Positions 31,686-57,458 of a stretch of 64,000 nucleotides of DNA are shown one piece after another (position 1 is the first letter of the stretch; each line of letters begins with the position of its first letter). Below the pieces are notes generated by a model. The model was not told where the DNA came from and did not search any database. It was given only the letters and a program-made list of their open reading frames with translations. Source of the DNA: a virus; the IMG/VR virus record IMGVR_UViG_3300019124_000038, positions 32,001 to 96,000 of that record. One strand, written 5' to 3'. The translations under genes and the position numbers were made by a program.

Positions 31686-32885
31686 ATGGCAGACTTCACG
31701 GTGGTCAAGGAGCTGATTCGGGAATCCATCGACCCCGTGCTCCTGCTGGAATACTACGGAGTGGACGTTCCAAACCGTAATTTCCGATACGGCGCGATTC
31801 GTTGCCCATGCCCGATTCACGGCGGGGATAACGAAACAGGATTCGGTTTCGATCTTAACAACAAACAGTTCACTTGCTTCACCAAGGGTTGCGGCGGTAG
31901 TCCCGAGGACTGGTGGTTCGTTCCGAAACAAGGCGGCGTGTCACGCGACATCTACCTCTTCATCAAGCTGATGGAGGAACGCAAAGCGCGGGAAGAAGGG
32001 CGAAGAAATTATGTTTGCCCCTTTCCGCAAGCACTGGAGATCGCGTCTCAATTGGCAGGAATCCCAATTGACGAATCAACGTCTTCCTATAATAAGGAGA
32101 TGCTTGACAAGCTCGACAACCAACGGTTCATCCGTCAAATGAATCGCATCCAGCAAGACGTAGAGCTTGACCCGATCAATGAAGACGAAATCGAAATATT
32201 CAAAGCACACTTGCCAATGTGTGAGTATGCAGAGACTCGTAACTTCTCTGAAGATATCGTAGAGCTGTTTGAGTGGGGCTACTCTCATGATGGTGTAGAT
32301 GAGCCTTGGGCATCTGGAAAACAGGATTTTGATGGTCGCCTGATCTTCCCTGTAAGAGATGACAACGGTGTGTTGGTAGGGTGGTCGGGTCGCCTTGCTA
32401 CACAGGACAAGGTACGCATCAAGAAGTATGGCAAGTGGAGACACATGCTGGACTTCGAGAAGGGCTTTGTTCTATACAACTACGACAAGGCAAAAGAGTT
32501 CGTCGAAGAGATGAAGGAACTGATCTTGGTAGAAGGGCCTTTCGACGTTCAAAGGCTATGGTCTTATGGCATTTACAATGTAGTAGCTGTCATGGGGGCA
32601 TCGTTAACCCCTGAGCAGTTGTCAATCGCAATCTCATCTGCATTCAAAATCCACATCTGGCTAGATGGCGACGGCGCGGGGGAAAGCGGGTCAAACCGAA
32701 TTGGTAAACAACTCTTGCCCTATGTCAACGTATACCAGATCAAAACAGAGAAAGACCCCGACGATCTCACGTTTGATGAAGCATGGGATGCACTCAGCAA
32801 GGCAGAGAGGTTCATACCAAAGGAGGAGAAGCGAGATGCCAGAAGTACGACTGGAAATCGGCGCAACGGTTACAAGCCACGGTGA
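31686..32885 (+). CDS. dnaG: DNA primase (CHC2 zinc finger + TOPRIM)
   Basis: CPCPIHGGDN...CFTKGCG; GRLIFPVRD..G.LVGWSGR; LVEGPFDV; LDGDGAG; KDPDD. Confidence 0.92.
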   Translation: MADFTVVKELIRESIDPVLLLEYYGVDVPNRNFRYGAIRCPCPIHGGDNETGFGFDLNNKQFTCFTKGCGGSPEDWWFVPKQGGVSRDIYLFIKLMEERKAREEGRRNYVCPFPQALEIASQLAGIPIDESTSSYNKEMLDKLDNQRFIRQMNRIQQDVELDPINEDEIEIFKAHLPMCEYAETRNFSEDIVELFEWGYSHDGVDEPWASGKQDFDGRLIFPVRDDNGVLVGWSGRLATQDKVRIKKYGKWRHMLDFEKGFVLYNYDKAKEFVEEMKELILVEGPFDVQRLWSYGIYNVVAVMGASLTPEQLSIAISSAFKIHIWLDGDGAGESGSNRIGKQLLPYVNVYQIKTEKDPDDLTFDEAWDALSKAERFIPKEEKRDARSTTGNRRNGYKPR

Positions 32886-52246: not shown

Positions 52247-52945
52247 GTGGCATTCATCTATATGAGCAACGGGGAGCCAGTAGAGATTGATGATGAGGAT
52301 TTCGCTTGGCTTAGTCAGTACAAATGGAGACCAGACAAAGATGGATATGCGCGAACGACTTGGAGGCAAGATGGGACACGGTATGACAGACGAATGCACC
52401 GCATGATTTTAGATGCTTCTAGGGGTCAAATTGTAGATCATATCGACGGGAATCGCCTTAATAATCGCAAAAACAATCTTCGTTTTGTGAGTAGCCGACA
52501 AAACTCACAAAACATGAAGAGACCGCGCACAAACACTACAGGCTATAAGGGTGTAGTGAAGCGCAGAGAAAATAGGTATGAAGCGAAAGTCACTCACGGC
52601 GGAGATTGTTTGTACTGCGGAACATACACGAATGCTCTTGCCGCCGCACATGCCTATAATTACAACGCTAAGTTATGCTTCGGTCAGTTCGCACAGCTCA
52701 ACGAGGTCGAACCTTTGGATGATTGGAGAGACTTTCGGGTTGCGACTGTTCCGAAATCACAATGGCGTGGAGTGAGTGAAAAAGGCGATAAGTGGCAAGC
52801 ATCTATTTTTCATGAAGGTCAAAGAGTCTATATTGGTCTATATGAGACAGAGATTCAGGCGGCTTTAGCCTATAACGCTAAGGCATCTGAGTTAAAAGGA
52901 GAAAGTGCTGTATTGAACGAAGTGGAGGATGATCTAGTATGCTAG
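52247..52945 (+). CDS. Free-standing HNH homing endonuclease with two AP2-like domains
   Basis: MHRMI...VDHIDGNRLNNRKNNLR; GYKGV...AA.AYN and WRGV...AALAYN. Confidence 0.9.
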   Translation: MAFIYMSNGEPVEIDDEDFAWLSQYKWRPDKDGYARTTWRQDGTRYDRRMHRMILDASRGQIVDHIDGNRLNNRKNNLRFVSSRQNSQNMKRPRTNTTGYKGVVKRRENRYEAKVTHGGDCLYCGTYTNALAAAHAYNYNAKLCFGQFAQLNEVEPLDDWRDFRVATVPKSQWRGVSEKGDKWQASIFHEGQRVYIGLYETEIQAALAYNAKASELKGESAVLNEVEDDLVC

Positions 52946-53805
52946 GAATTGCATTCGCAGGAGGTGGAATCAGAGGAAGTGTCGAACTCGGCATCGTAAA
53001 GGCTTTCTACGAAGCGAACATTCGCCCAACAATCTTTACTGGTGCATCCGCTGGTTCAATTGTGGCAGGGCTACTAGCGATGGGCTACAGTCCTGACGAA
53101 GCATTCGCTGAGTTTTCAAAAGTTGGTAGTGATGTAATGGATGTAGCGTATGGTCATATCCTGTCTGGTCTCTTCTCGAAAGAACGAGTGCAAGGACTAG
53201 TTAGGGGTGACAGATTAGAGTCTATGTTGAACATGCTCTATTGCCGACGACAAATGCATGGGATTCCACAACCTAATAAGTTGGCAGTTGTTGCGACAGA
53301 CATCCAGACAGGCAAACAGATCATTTTTGCGAATCAAGACCCAGTAGACACAAGCATGATTGGTGATGATAATTTCGCATGGTTTAATCAGAGCACTTTG
53401 CCAATCAGTTTTGCTGTTCGCAGTTCATGCTCTTTCCCCGCCGTCTTCTTACCGAAGAGGTACATGGATTATGTATTAGTGGACGGGGGACTCACCAACA
53501 ATGTCCCATCGGATATTGCGCGGGCACTGGGAGCAACACAGGTCATTACTATTGATCTTGGCTACAACGGGGAGAAAGAGGAAGTAGGTGGTATCGCTTC
53601 AATCATCGGGAAAAGCATTTCAATTCTCATGGAGCGCGTAAACGATCATAATAACGATACACATGGAATCTATCTGAATCCTAGCGTGGATGATGTTGGA
53701 ACATTTGATTTCTCGCAAATGGACGAACTCTACCAGATCGGCTATAGATACGGGAAAGCAATGATCCAAGAAGTTCGTGAGAAGCTAGTCCTTGCCACAG
53801 CCTAG
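52939..53805 (+). CDS. Patatin-like phospholipase
   Basis: GGGIRG, GASAG nucleophile, SCSFP..F, LVDGG. Confidence 0.9.
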   Translation: MLGIAFAGGGIRGSVELGIVKAFYEANIRPTIFTGASAGSIVAGLLAMGYSPDEAFAEFSKVGSDVMDVAYGHILSGLFSKERVQGLVRGDRLESMLNMLYCRRQMHGIPQPNKLAVVATDIQTGKQIIFANQDPVDTSMIGDDNFAWFNQSTLPISFAVRSSCSFPAVFLPKRYMDYVLVDGGLTNNVPSDIARALGATQVITIDLGYNGEKEEVGGIASIIGKSISILMERVNDHNNDTHGIYLNPSVDDVGTFDFSQMDELYQIGYRYGKAMIQEVREKLVLATA

Positions 53806-53821
53806 CAATCTATGTTATACT
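53792..53821 (+). promoter_or_regulatory. SigA-type promoter of the radical SAM operon
   Basis: TTGCCA-N18-TATACT with extended -10 TG; same CC prefix and downstream TATAAG as other phage promoters. Confidence 0.65.
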
Positions 53822-53851: not shown

Positions 53852-54187
53852 ATGGTAACAATCGCAAATGGCGTTGTTTTCAATGACACCCATGTCGTAA
53901 CAACAACTGAGCTTTTACGGCTCTCCTTCTATGGGACAGGCAATGAGAATGTCATCATTGCCTTTGCTCCTAGTGTTGAGCGTCGTGGCTTGAAAGTTCT
54001 AAATGATTTCAAGCAAAACGGTACAGCAAAGATTCAAGTGTACAACAACGGTGTGCTTATCTTTGAAGATAGTGCCTATACAGATGTACAGTTCGAATAT
54101 GCCAAGAACGACACGCAAAATCTGGTAGAGCAACTGAACTTCACCAAGTCTGTTTCTTCGCTATCGACATCTACGGTCAGCGGGTAG
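53852..54187 (+). CDS. Hypothetical beta-rich protein, first gene of rSAM operon
   Basis: RBS GAGGAGG; 111 aa. Confidence 0.6.
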   Translation: MVTIANGVVFNDTHVVTTTELLRLSFYGTGNENVIIAFAPSVERRGLKVLNDFKQNGTAKIQVYNNGVLIFEDSAYTDVQFEYAKNDTQNLVEQLNFTKSVSSLSTSTVSG

Positions 54188-54196
54188 GTGTTATAG

Positions 54197-54853
54197 ATGC
54201 CAGCACAGAAAGGTACAGTTTGGATTACCGATTCTGAGTTTCATCTGGTAGGTGAGGACGGACTGCATTGGTACTATGTCGGCACTGATGCGGGTGCGGC
54301 TCCAGCGGATGCAGACCTTGGCTCTATTTGGGTTAACACCAATCTGTATTACATCGACGCTAACGCTAGGATTCGGTATATCCCAAGCGTAGTCATGAGC
54401 GCTGTGCAGGGTGTTGCTGGTAGTGCATGGATTAATAACCGTTTCCTCTACTGGCTAGATAACACAAAGACCATCCGATACGGTCATTCAGATGTCGCAG
54501 GATACAACGACTACGGCGATTCACGCGCTCACGGAGACACGGCATTCTATGACAGGGCACATACCGATTCCTATGGCACATATACAAACTGGGCGCATAG
54601 CGACACTCCTCACTCTGACAACGCACACGGTGACTGGCAACCATACTGCGACGTAACTGGTTGCTCGCCTACGCACGGTGATTATGGACATGGCGATAGT
54701 CCACATAGTGATAATCCGCATGTAGATTCACCAGCGCAATATTTCGATATTCCACACGGGGATACGCCACATAGCGACACCCCACCATACTCGGATTACG
54801 GCGATTCTCGGGCACATGCAGACTACCCACGACAGGGAACGACAATTGCATAG
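54197..54853 (+). CDS. His/Tyr-X-Asp repeat protein, putative substrate of the adjacent radical SAM enzyme
   Basis: Three N-terminal G[ST].W[IV] repeats, then 20 aromatic-X-Asp motifs in residues 97-209. Confidence 0.75.
   Translation: MPAQKGTVWITDSEFHLVGEDGLHWYYVGTDAGAAPADADLGSIWVNTNLYYIDANARIRYIPSVVMSAVQGVAGSAWINNRFLYWLDNTKTIRYGHSDVAGYNDYGDSRAHGDTAFYDRAHTDSYGTYTNWAHSDTPHSDNAHGDWQPYCDVTGCSPTHGDYGHGDSPHSDNPHVDSPAQYFDIPHGDTPHSDTPPYSDYGDSRAHADYPRQGTTIA
54485..54823 (+). repeat. Coding repeat array of H/Y/F-X-D motifs (mostly 5-residue period)
   Basis: HSD,YND,YGD,HGD,FYD,HTD,HSD,HSD,HGD,YCD,HGD,HGD,HSD,HVD,YFD,HGD,HSD,YSD,YGD,HAD; YGDSRAH occurs near both ends. Confidence 0.85.
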
Positions 54854-54864
54854 GAGGGGAAAGG

Positions 54865-56079
54865 ATGGCTAACGAAGTTAGACCTATGGGTGTAGCATGT
54901 AATCTTAAATGCACTTACTGCTATCAGAACCCTCTTCGGGATGCGGGGAATATCAATACTCTGTATGATCTCGAAAAGATCATCGAGCAACTTGACAAGA
55001 CCACATCAGAGTTTCACCTTTTCGGGGGTGAAGCTCTACTAATCCCGAAGAAAGATTTAGAGGTTCTTTGGTCATACGGATTAAAACGGTTCGGACAAAA
55101 CGGGATTCAAACGAACGGCGTACTTATCGACGCTGAACACGTAGAACTGTTCAAAAAATATAAAGTTTCTGTCGGCATCTCTATCGACGGCCCTGCCGAA
55201 CTCAACGACATGCGTTGGGCGGGTTCTCTCGACAAGACACGGGAAGCAACGCAAAAGATCATGGACAACATCGTTATGCTGGCTAATGAGGGTGTGCAGA
55301 TGGGCATTATCATCACCATCCACAAACTTAATGGTATGCCAGAACATCTTCCACGACTGCTCAATTTTATTCGTTGGCTCGGAGATATCGGCGTTAAAGG
55401 CGGCAACATTCACACCCTTGAAGTCGATAATGAGATTGTAAGGAACATGTTCTGTCTGACAGAAGAAGAAAATCTTTATGCGTTCCTGACTCTGGCGCAG
55501 TTCTTTCAGGAGAACCCTGATCTGTCATGGAATCCGTTCGGAGAAATATACAAGCTCCTCCAAGGTGATGACTACGGGGCTAACTGTAATTTTAAACGAT
55601 GTGATTCTATGAACACTCAGGCGGTCTATGGCATTGAAGGGAATGGCGCACTGTCTAACTGCTCTCGCACTAACAAAGAAGGTATCGACATGTATAAGGC
55701 AGACGATCATGGCTATGAGCGCTACATTTCGCTCTACCACACGCCGCCTGAGTATGGTGGCTGTAACGGTTGCCGTTTCTGGTCGATCTGCGGTGGATCA
55801 TGTCCCGGTGAAAGTGTTAATGGAGACTTTAGAAACAAAACAATACACTGTCAAACAATGAAGGGTATTCTCGGTTTCTACGAAGAAGTTCTGGAGAGCG
55901 AGGGTATTCAACCTATCACTAAGCATCCGAATCTCTACGAATACGAGAGAGAGATGTTGAAGTGGATGGCGCAAGGTCAGAACTGCTTGCTCAGTGATGC
56001 TATCAGGATGGTTGATGGTCGCGGGGAAAATGGCGAAATTCGCGTAGTTCCTGTGTACAGAAATGAAGGGAGGGAGTAA
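54865..56079 (+). CDS. Radical SAM/SPASM-domain peptide/protein maturase (no N-terminal RRE)
   Basis: CNLKCTYC (CX3CX2C), FGGEAL, QTNG, SIDGP; SPASM C...C...C plus CNGCRFWSICGGSC (CX2CX5CX3C) and distal Cys. Confidence 0.9.
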   Translation: MANEVRPMGVACNLKCTYCYQNPLRDAGNINTLYDLEKIIEQLDKTTSEFHLFGGEALLIPKKDLEVLWSYGLKRFGQNGIQTNGVLIDAEHVELFKKYKVSVGISIDGPAELNDMRWAGSLDKTREATQKIMDNIVMLANEGVQMGIIITIHKLNGMPEHLPRLLNFIRWLGDIGVKGGNIHTLEVDNEIVRNMFCLTEEENLYAFLTLAQFFQENPDLSWNPFGEIYKLLQGDDYGANCNFKRCDSMNTQAVYGIEGNGALSNCSRTNKEGIDMYKADDHGYERYISLYHTPPEYGGCNGCRFWSICGGSCPGESVNGDFRNKTIHCQTMKGILGFYEEVLESEGIQPITKHPNLYEYEREMLKWMAQGQNCLLSDAIRMVDGRGENGEIRVVPVYRNEGRE

Positions 56080-57041
56080 TGATGGAACTGCTTGGCTTTG
56101 ACATGCCGCCGTTTGCGCGTATTCAATATGTTACAGCAGGTGTCAAGAACGAGTGGGAGCCGCGTGTTGCAAGAGCCGCAAAAGCCTACTACGATCTGGA
56201 GCTTCTAACTGTCAAGCATGGAGTACGCGCATGTACTACACGTCATGTCTCTCCACAGAACTTGGAGTATGACTTACAGAACTTTGCGCGGCATGGTCTT
56301 GTGTGGCTTCCGATTCAACGAGTGGGAAGCTATCAGGGCTTTGCTCACAAGCATCCTCCTGTTCAGGAAGGTCGCCCTTGGGCTTGGTATGGTGTAGTGG
56401 CTCGTACAATGGAAGACGCTTTGAAGTTTGTCGAAGCATCGACGACAAAGTTCGACCACGATGTTCTTGGTCAGCTTCTTGGCTATCCCGACTGTTGTCG
56501 AAAGTTTTTTAATGAGGTGTGGGGGGCAGGGTATATTGACCCAATATGGCAACAAGCAGGAGGTGATCTTGAACACATGATACAGCATGAGGTCACGGAA
56601 GGTCAGGAAATGGTGCACTTCTCCAGTAGCGTCTCACATTTGACCGTATCCATGCTTCGTTATATTGGTGTGCGTATCGTACCGCATATCCCGTGCTCTG
56701 TAGGTTGCAAACATTCAGAGCATATTGCTCAGGCATGGTTTGAAGTCGGAGAGAAAGAGGAGGTAGAAGGTCTCCGTGATCTTGTAGCCCTCTTGACTCT
56801 GCCTACTGAATGGGACTGCCTGAGAGGGATTGCCGTTGTCTCTACACCTTTGTTCAAGATTCAGACGAACTCTATGACCACAACGAAGCGGTACATTGTT
56901 CGTAAGGATGGCGAATGGTATCCAGAAGAAGCACCAAGCGGCTTGAAGTTTCCTTGGCAAACGAAAGTAGGATTCGGATGTAATACCAGTATTCGCTCAC
57001 ACGCCAAGTCTGATCTGATTCAAGTAGAGAGTACACAATGA
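56079..57041 (+). CDS. Cys/His-rich protein with DUF483-like LGYPxCC motif
   Basis: GQLLGYPDCCRKFF, PHIPCSVGCKHS; start overlaps rSAM stop. Confidence 0.55.
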   Translation: MMELLGFDMPPFARIQYVTAGVKNEWEPRVARAAKAYYDLELLTVKHGVRACTTRHVSPQNLEYDLQNFARHGLVWLPIQRVGSYQGFAHKHPPVQEGRPWAWYGVVARTMEDALKFVEASTTKFDHDVLGQLLGYPDCCRKFFNEVWGAGYIDPIWQQAGGDLEHMIQHEVTEGQEMVHFSSSVSHLTVSMLRYIGVRIVPHIPCSVGCKHSEHIAQAWFEVGEKEEVEGLRDLVALLTLPTEWDCLRGIAVVSTPLFKIQTNSMTTTKRYIVRKDGEWYPEEAPSGLKFPWQTKVGFGCNTSIRSHAKSDLIQVESTQ

Positions 57042-57211
57042 AACTTCTCCGCATATTGTTAGTGCCAATCACGTACCCGATTTTCGTGGTTCTCGTTATT
57101 CTCGCGAATTTACTTATAGTAGTAACATTTGGAGATGTTCGTTGGGCATGGATATTCGCAGGATGGGTACAGGATTACTACTATTGGATAAGTGAATGGA
57201 GGTATATGTAG
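57038..57211 (+). CDS. Small membrane protein (57 aa, not in ORF track)
   Basis: ATGA overlap with upstream stop; long hydrophobic helix then Trp/Tyr-rich tail. Confidence 0.45.
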   Translation: MKLLRILLVPITYPIFVVLVILANLLIVVTFGDVRWAWIFAGWVQDYYYWISEWRYM

Positions 57212-57429: not shown

Positions 57430-57458
57430 TTGACAAATCTGTCACTAAAGTCTATAAT
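57430..57458 (+). promoter_or_regulatory. SigA-type promoter for erf
   Basis: TTGACA-N17-TATAAT. Confidence 0.85.

Follow-up and report, generated by a model that had tools for sequence, protein, structure and literature searches.

A 64,000-nucleotide stretch of viral DNA (IMG/VR record IMGVR_UViG_3300019124_000038, positions 32,001 to 96,000; hereafter, the window) encodes a protein of 218 amino acids, P0001 (54197..54853, plus strand), in which motifs of the aromatic-x-Asp type are spaced as mirror images around a central segment. The mirror spacing is conserved among relatives through insertions and deletions that are compensated on both arms, and the gene is linked to that of a radical S-adenosylmethionine (rSAM) enzyme with a SPASM domain; from these observations we infer a hairpin, its chemistry and its location in the virion. 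The explanation favored here, held as a whole with moderate confidence, is that P0001 is a phage protein acting as the substrate of the neighboring rSAM/SPASM enzyme, and that its product would be a stapled antiparallel hairpin on a β base.

Regarding the array, an earlier note on this DNA had claimed that the motifs of its two arms are spaced with exact mirror symmetry, and the translation of 54197..54853 bears this out: the starts in the left arm (residues 97, 103, 106, 112, 117, 122, 129, 134, 139 and 144, with YTN at 129) and those in the right arm (160, 165, 170, 175, 182, 187, 192, 198, 201 and 207) give a left/right sum of 304 in 10 pairs out of 10. The nucleotide range assigned to the array, 54485-54823, corresponds exactly to residues 97-209. 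It can be divided into the outgoing arm, with ten aromatic-x-Asp/Asn motifs (residues 97-146; 54485..54634), the tip or turn segment (residues 147-159, WQP-YCD-VTGCSPT; 54635..54673), with the mirror axis near residue 153, and the returning arm, whose ten aromatic-x-Asp motifs mirror those of the left arm (residues 160-209; 54674..54823), all on the plus strand. The tip includes a further motif, YCD at residue 150, which brings the total to 21 triads, and it contains Cys151 and Cys156, the sole Cys pair of the protein, as had been stated. Within residues 97-209, all the Asp (20/20) occupy motif position 3 and all the His (13/13) motif position 1. P0001 is the only motif-dense open reading frame (ORF) of the window, with 11 motifs per 60 amino acids versus at most 5 elsewhere, and it is present in one copy in the 146.5-kb virus record. 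As for known families, P0001 had no match in Pfam (at E ≤ 0.01), NCBIfam or PHROGs, none in the PDB by sequence profile search at E ≤ 1, and only scores below 0.8 in the protein atlas; megablast against phage records also gave no match.

The gap sizes in the array are 3, 5, 6, 7 and 10; without YCD, the series of 19 gaps is perfectly palindromic (6, 3, 6, 5, 5, 7, 5, 5, 5, 16, 5, 5, 5, 7, 5, 5, 6, 3, 6). Palindromic orderings account for 1512 of the about 3.5 × 10^8 distinct orderings of this gap multiset (∼4 × 10^−6), and none of 1000 shuffles of the gaps reached the observed score (p ≤ 0.001). These figures carry a caveat: the YxDYGDSRAHxD sequence of the 6-3-6 block occurs twice as a direct repeat (residues 103-114 and 198-209), and the block is itself palindromic; since, in addition, most gaps are equal to 5, P0001 alone is suggestive and not conclusive, and the homologs are decisive. 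Two origins of the pattern were tried and rejected. The YxDYGDSRAHxD block was not duplicated recently, since many synonymous sites distinguish its copies at the DNA level; nor does an inverted repeat in the DNA account for the mirror, as a unit that codes for HxD, read as its reverse complement, no longer specifies HxD.

The homologs were collected by a full scan of 1.84 billion representatives, which returned 123 clusters at E ≤ 10^−3. Most of them share the architecture of P0001, consisting of a three-repeat domain of ∼95 residues, an aromatic-x-Asp array and a short tail that starts with D-x-P. The mirror recurs in P0002, 60% identical to P0001, with a sum of 308 in 10/10 pairs, and in P0005, which is 32% identical and has another gap pattern, with a sum of 307 in 11/11 pairs. 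The earlier note had proposed to look at whether indels are balanced on both arms, and pairwise alignments revealed that they are in four independent close pairs. Between P0001 and P0002, two residues are added after residue 142 and two after residue 163 (142.5 + 163.5 = 306); between P0006 and P0025 (69% identity), one residue is added after 122, one after 178 and sixteen after 150, all symmetric about 150.5 (sum 301), an axis derived independently from the motif sums, so that the 16-residue insertion falls exactly on it. P0007 and P0133 differ by mirrored insertions of four residues, and P0004 and P0007 by three single-residue indels, also mirrored.

The same tendency is visible in the family at large. 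The exact-mirror permutation test gave p < 0.05 for 20 of 68 arrays, where chance alone predicts 3.4, with 14 of them at p < 0.01; in a second set, retrieved via the enzyme and not via the substrate, p < 0.05 was found for 11 of 34 arrays. Arrays carried by large tail-protein fusions are often near-perfect palindromes, with 42/43, 32/33 and 58/62 motifs mirrored. Of 48 members, 16 have their largest gap between motifs at 0.45-0.55 of the array length, where 4.8 would be expected, and of 26 long arrays, 10 have it at 0.48-0.52; in P0001 it is found at 0.53. Family-wide, the central segments have a Gly plus Pro content of 30%, versus 18% for the other spacers. A 528-amino acid relative with 101 triads (L012:2905-4491) contains tandem direct repeats of ∼47 residues inside its array; arrays thus expand by tandem duplication too, possibly as strings of several mini-hairpins.

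One reading, already disfavored and very improbable, denies the mirror any structural meaning and traces it to the duplication of repeats where complexity is low and periods are mostly of 5 residues. Its strengths are the prevalence of gaps of 5, the direct repeat that happens to be palindromic, the occurrence of tandem duplication in the family and the many arrays that fail the exact test; however, tandem duplication leads to translational and not to mirror order, the palindrome probability calculated for the gap set is very small, indels are mirrored in four close pairs, and the enrichment appears in two sets retrieved separately.

As for the structure that the mirror implies, a DNA inverted repeat cannot encode such a pattern and tandem duplication gives a translational order, hence the mirrored arms point to antiparallel pairing; the Gly/Pro-rich and insertion-tolerant center argues for a turn. 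If the arms pair, the sole register that places motif on motif is i + j = S + 2, where S is the pair sum (306 in P0001), with each aromatic residue opposite the Asp of the matching triad, and the positions of the mirrored indels between P0001 and P0002 fit this register. The spacers vary from 0 to 4 residues, which makes a regular flat β-ribbon unlikely; local rungs arranged as a ladder, with linkers matched in length between them, agree better with this variation. Thus, the antiparallel out-and-back arrangement put forward in the earlier note is well supported, at the level of sequence, by the compensated indels and the palindrome statistics; instead, the disulfide that was supposed to close the tip did not stand, because a single Cys is present at the tip of the closest homolog, and most relatives lack Cys there.

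The mirror can also be read as the signature of an antiparallel homodimer, in which the extended array of ∼110 residues would pair head-to-tail with that of a second subunit, with swapped docking of the tails, to form a dumb-bell. A two-fold axis through residue ∼153 would produce the identical i + j = 306 symmetry and the compensated indels, and a monomer model from AlphaFold 2 (AF2) cannot separate intrachain from swapped docking of the tail. Yet the center of the array is where its largest non-motif segment lies, which is Gly/Pro-rich and tolerates an insertion of 16 residues, features that suit a turn and not a segment that pairs with itself; the homodimer is therefore considered unlikely.

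The folded part of the hairpin model was examined with an AF2 monomer model of P0001, built from an alignment of 46 sequences. The N-terminal base domain (residues ∼5-96; 54209..54484, plus strand) consists of three repeats of ∼25-30 amino acids (G-S-x-W ... L-x-Y-x-D ... R); it is modeled as all-β, with 11 strands and a predicted local distance difference test (pLDDT) score of 95-98, and its near-invariant residues are G6, G29, G42, S43, W45, Y52, G75 and W78. The best fold match of this domain is a weak one, to β-prism II lectins (LLPA, 3m7h; Z 4.0, rmsd 4.7 Å, 92 residues aligned). Beyond it, Foldseek (PDB and BFVD) and VIA-align returned one viral homolog and no fiber-tip fold, a search that says little given the low model confidence of the arms. 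The C-terminal tail, YPRQGTTIA (54824..54850, plus strand), is predicted by AF2 to dock on the base domain: the last eight residues have a pLDDT of 86, with a strand at 212-213, while the flanking arm has a value of ∼50. P211 is kept in at least 90% of the family, and the motif-x-P tail co-occurs with the N-terminal domain (85/109 versus 25/54, odds ratio 4.1, p 8 × 10^−5). Because the modeled arms offer no other strands, the base domain must be the pairing partner of the strand at 212-213, and the two ends of the array are thereby brought together.

The second line of evidence is the gene that follows. The rSAM/SPASM enzyme (404 amino acids; 54865..56079, plus strand; PF04055 at 1.1 × 10^−16, phrog_1802) is the presumed modifier. 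An alignment of the enzyme was used to fetch 80 IMG/VR loci, and a close enzyme homolog is present in 64 of them. In 48 of these 64, the ORF richest in motifs (25-130) ends within 60 nucleotides of the rSAM start, and the enzyme gene usually has a DUF483-like gene after it; in 11 further loci, a motif-rich ORF is found at 0.4-3.7 kb from the enzyme, and distant rSAMs are without one. The order repeat protein, rSAM and DUF483-like protein is found in the window, in the related loci L001-L003, L005, L007 and L008, and in the Thermus phage phiMa. The enzyme accompanies the array on differing carriers: the three-repeat base, a tail-fiber-type N-terminus (P0004, P0007 and P0066) or a domain of ∼500 residues (P0021). 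Moreover, four rSAM homologs (L003:6759-8069, L005:5103-6299, L007:9217-10596 and L008:4320-5564) have C-terminal H-x-D repeats of their own, with 4-10 triads (for example, HGDAHGDSPHGDAHGDHTD), whose role could be that of a built-in substrate, of a tether or of a mimic for autoinhibition; the enzymes of the window, L001 and L002 do not have them. Linkage across carriers, together with these enzyme-borne repeats, indicates that the array is most likely the substrate of the neighboring rSAM. As a separate observation, the rSAM homolog beside P0005 (L002:6682-8892, 737 amino acids) contains an intein-like insert with a weak Hom_end_hint match, that starts at the third Cys of CX3CX2C (CNIQCTY-C-LVEG...), with the rSAM domain resuming at about residue 348.

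The gene linkage bears on another alternative, that the rSAM and the DUF483-like protein act on DNA or on a small molecule, with the repeat protein as an accessory or unrelated product having a flexible metal-binding or acidic tail. Homologs of both proteins adjoin deazapurine DNA-modification genes in cyanobacteria (PMC11437467), the operon of the window is in the replication region, and some DUF483 proteins carry a fused methyltransferase. This alternative is nonetheless quite improbable, given that the rSAM tracks the array across unrelated N-terminal fusions (∼59/64 viral loci), that some rSAMs bear the motif on their own tail, that SPASM peptide maturases are the type to which the enzyme belongs, and that a disordered tail would not retain mirrored indels.

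Regarding the type of enzyme, the rSAM of the window combines PF04055 and Fer4_12; it has the CX3CX2C motif at residues 12-19 (C12-x3-C16-x2-C19) and the full C-terminal set of SPASM Cys (at least 7), with no N-terminal recognition domain. It gave partial NCBIfam matches to anSME, DynA, AmcB, YhhB, PapB and XyeB, all far below the cut-offs, and full-length alignments to the SPASM maturases PapB, CefB and QhpD; its relatives in the PDB are anSME (4k37) and the rSAM domain of ChlB (9gm3), and it belongs to a separate clade, phrog_1802. SPASM enzymes of this kind form bonds between the ring and the C-β on aromatic-X-X triads, and YxdB links Tyr-C3 to the Asp C-β on YxD motifs (PMC11002830); for the His-specific HtkB, Phe or Trp can stand where His normally does (PMC11499958). 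In the family of P0001, His, Tyr, Phe and Trp exchange at motif position 1, and Asp and Asn at position 3; P0012, for instance, has long runs of FSN and HSN motifs. This exchange keeps what a cyclophane requires and destroys what a metal site requires, and for this reason i/i+2 cyclophanes are favored over a metal ladder: by analogy, chemistry of the triceptide type fits the interchange of motif residues better than metal ligation does. Links between the arms, or metal bound by His/Asp rungs, may nonetheless occur.

The metal ladder goes back to the model of the earlier note, which took the protein for an HxD analog of a fiber needle, like the tip of gp37 from phage T4, stabilized by metal and/or rSAM cross-links; in the version weighed here, it would probably be a trimer of hairpins with axial metal on His and Asp, and the rSAM would make inter-strand links or none. 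Tail fibers are usually trimers, and work by Bartual and colleagues in 2010 is said to have found the gp37 tip to be an out-and-back trimer with HxH iron sites. The out-and-back mirror agrees with such a needle, as do the tail-fiber-type N-termini of some relatives and the fact that His and Asp are good metal ligands, four of which would cluster at each rung in the 306 register. Against it, the free use of Phe, Trp or Tyr for His and of Asn for Asp, as in P0012, would destroy the metal sites, the three-repeat base contained in one chain hints at a monomer, the Cys pair is not conserved, and no fiber tip was matched by sequence or, with the arms modeled at low confidence, by fold. A trimeric metal needle is therefore less likely than an rSAM-stapled hairpin, and as a whole it has a low probability. 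The resemblance to gp37 is confined to the architecture: in both cases the chain would run out and back, here as deduced by comparing sequences, to form a long thin structure in which tripeptide motifs that contain His recur on the two arms; the gp37 motifs are HxH, bind iron and belong to an intertwined trimer, while those of P0001 are aromatic-x-Asp/Asn with Phe, Tyr and Trp, its gene comes with an rSAM, and no homology is detectable.

The nearest functional analogy is instead with the triceptide systems (XncB/XyeB, OscB/GrrM, MscB/FxsB, YxdB, HaaB, YhhB, HtkB and ChlB), where a SPASM rSAM gene stands beside repeated aromatic-x-X triads. Their YxD motif is proven (PMC11002830), as are the His triads of HaaB and HtkB, and the aromatic residues are interchangeable (PMC11499958); the bond is a C-C one from the aromatic ring to the C-β of residue 3, with a loss of 2 Da per triad, and it may be expected in P0001 by analogy only. 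The differences are several: P0001 is not a short leader-core peptide but a 218-residue protein with a folded domain of 96 residues (pLDDT > 95); it has ∼21 triads, mostly HxD, on two mirror-spaced arms, and is encoded by a phage; a DUF483-like partner is present, no protease or exporter is nearby, and the enzyme scores below the cut-offs of the named families. As a result, membership in a named family fails on both the enzyme score and the type of precursor. As for pentapeptide-repeat β-helices, these share the dominant 5-residue period, but P0001 has no Pfam match, its spacing ranges from 3 to 7 residues, its symmetry is mirror and not translational, and its repeat core is made of polar His and Asp instead of Leu and Phe.

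A homologous three-gene set is known from the Thermus phages phiMa and Cumys as the "rSAM module" (PMC11437467). phiMa_29 (342 amino acids) is 29.5% identical to P0001 over the whole query and has the common N-terminal domain followed by an H-x-D array; phiMa_28 is the rSAM (phrog_1802), and phiMa_27 aligns with the DUF483-like protein, with tblastn values for the module of 4 × 10^−14 and 3 × 10^−11 covering 97-100% of the query. The description there is of an rSAM accompanied by two unknown proteins, with the modification of DNA as a guessed role, and that paper makes no mention of repeats, mirror or protein substrate (PMC11437467). Literature linking phages, cyclophanes, HxD motifs or SPASM enzymes with tail fibers gave no description of a mirror-armed array. 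What is new is thus the reading of a protein-scale, phage-borne, mirror-armed and triceptide-like substrate, the module itself having already been noted in Thermus phages.

The third gene encodes a Cys-rich DUF483-like protein of 320 amino acids, whose start overlaps the rSAM stop (56079..57041, plus strand; weak PF04467 match). It is homologous in all eight loci, with an invariant LLGYPxCC and a second Cys pair; its AF2 model has a pLDDT of 63, and its best PDB match, 2guk (Z 6.0), is of unknown function. In three loci it continues at the C-terminus into a SAM-dependent methyltransferase domain (L003:8069-9289, L005:6305-7513 and L007:10643-12286), a domain with no counterpart in the 320-residue version of the window; to judge from the sequences, this fusion hints at a second tailoring step.

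As regards the location of the product, the P0021 gene is part of a siphovirus tail module, directly after a gene for 984 amino acids, P0066 has a match to a PHROG for virion structure, and P0004, P0007 and P0066 carry a tail-fiber-type N-terminal motif fused to the repeat protein. Since in relatives the array is fused to tail proteins, the repeat protein is probably an appendage of the virion.

In the window, P0001 is the second of five tightly packed genes that follow a promoter-like site (53792..53821, plus strand; TTGCCA-18-TATACT with a TG extension, 10/12, a consensus match only). The first gene encodes a 111-amino acid protein of unknown function (53852..54187, plus strand), with no match in Pfam, NCBIfam or PHROGs; it is 34% identical to a 102-amino acid protein at the equivalent position in L001, and it is not homologous to the tail-fiber-anchor-like small proteins upstream in L005, L008 and L009. 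The latter (L005:3913-4197, L008:2344-2586 and L009:7698-7988) have the tail-fiber-type N-terminal motif (..W....V.A.ELNEQIRDN..HLK) that P0004, P0007 and P0066 carry in fused form, and end in LPVG-D-(R/K)-WA. The operon closes with a strongly hydrophobic ORF of 57 amino acids, found in the ORF list and its translation, that overlaps the stop of the DUF483-like gene (57038..57211, plus strand); L001 has in the matching place an ORF of 58 amino acids, annotated with a VbhA Pfam match. A strong promoter-like site for the next gene is present after the operon, at 57430-57458. According to the ORF list and Pfam, no gene for a protease or a transporter/exporter is part of the operon. Just upstream, the window has a gene for a patatin-like phospholipase (52939-53805), as does the related phage contig L001.

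Several facts weigh against a stapled hairpin carried by the virion. About two thirds of the arrays fail the crude exact-mirror test, and some, such as that of L012, have clearly grown by tandem direct duplication. In the AF2 model, residues 101-205 have a pLDDT of ∼50 (∼52 for the left arm) and no strands, and the pairing of the arms is supported by no structure; spacers of variable length, from 0 to 4 residues, do not fit a regular β-ribbon, and two chains that pair antiparallel would produce the same mirror. The bit scores of the rSAM are 37-74, whereas the cut-offs for the named cyclophane synthase families (XyeB, GrrM/OscB, FxsB, YhhB and AmcB) are 310-450; since the enzyme reaches the threshold of no named maturase family, the cyclophane chemistry is only an analogy. 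Finally, the operon sits among genes for replication and nucleotide metabolism and outside the tail module, the tail genes being at 1-20 kb and the replication genes at 26-51 kb.

In the mechanism proposed for the stapled hairpin, residues 1-96 would fold as a three-repeat β domain and act as the base; from it, the chain would run out for ∼50 residues, turn at ∼147-159 and come back for another ∼50, after which the last nine residues would dock again on the base. The arms would pair antiparallel in the register i + j = 306, with aromatic residues facing Asp in about ten rungs and with spacers of equal length on both arms. At each aromatic-x-Asp/Asn triad, the rSAM would most likely join the ring to the C-β of residue 3 by a C-C bond, closing a three-residue cyclophane as in triceptides, and the product would be a rigid, covalently stapled rod; the DUF483-like protein would be a conserved third partner.

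A wider proposal, possible but doubtful, is that these proteins form a class of stapled viral structural proteins. In P0001, about twenty cyclophanes would be installed on a protein-sized substrate and the arms would be zipped together, with rungs made of cyclophane pairs or of His/Asp clusters; the outcome would be a rigid needle resistant to heat and proteases, either free-standing or fused to tail proteins, on the tails of diverse phages including those of Thermus. The Thermus phage phiMa on T. thermophilus HB8 provides a direct test system. If the proposal is true, the cyclophane chemistry of rSAM enzymes, known from small RiPP (ribosomally made, post-translationally modified peptide) products, would extend to whole phage proteins, with up to ∼130 sites, and a simple sequence rule, namely equal spacers at mirrored positions, would describe a new covalently reinforced fiber fold. 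The module of rSAM, DUF483-like protein and repeat protein, widespread in phages and listed in the literature as unknown or as a guessed DNA modifier, would in that case also acquire a function.

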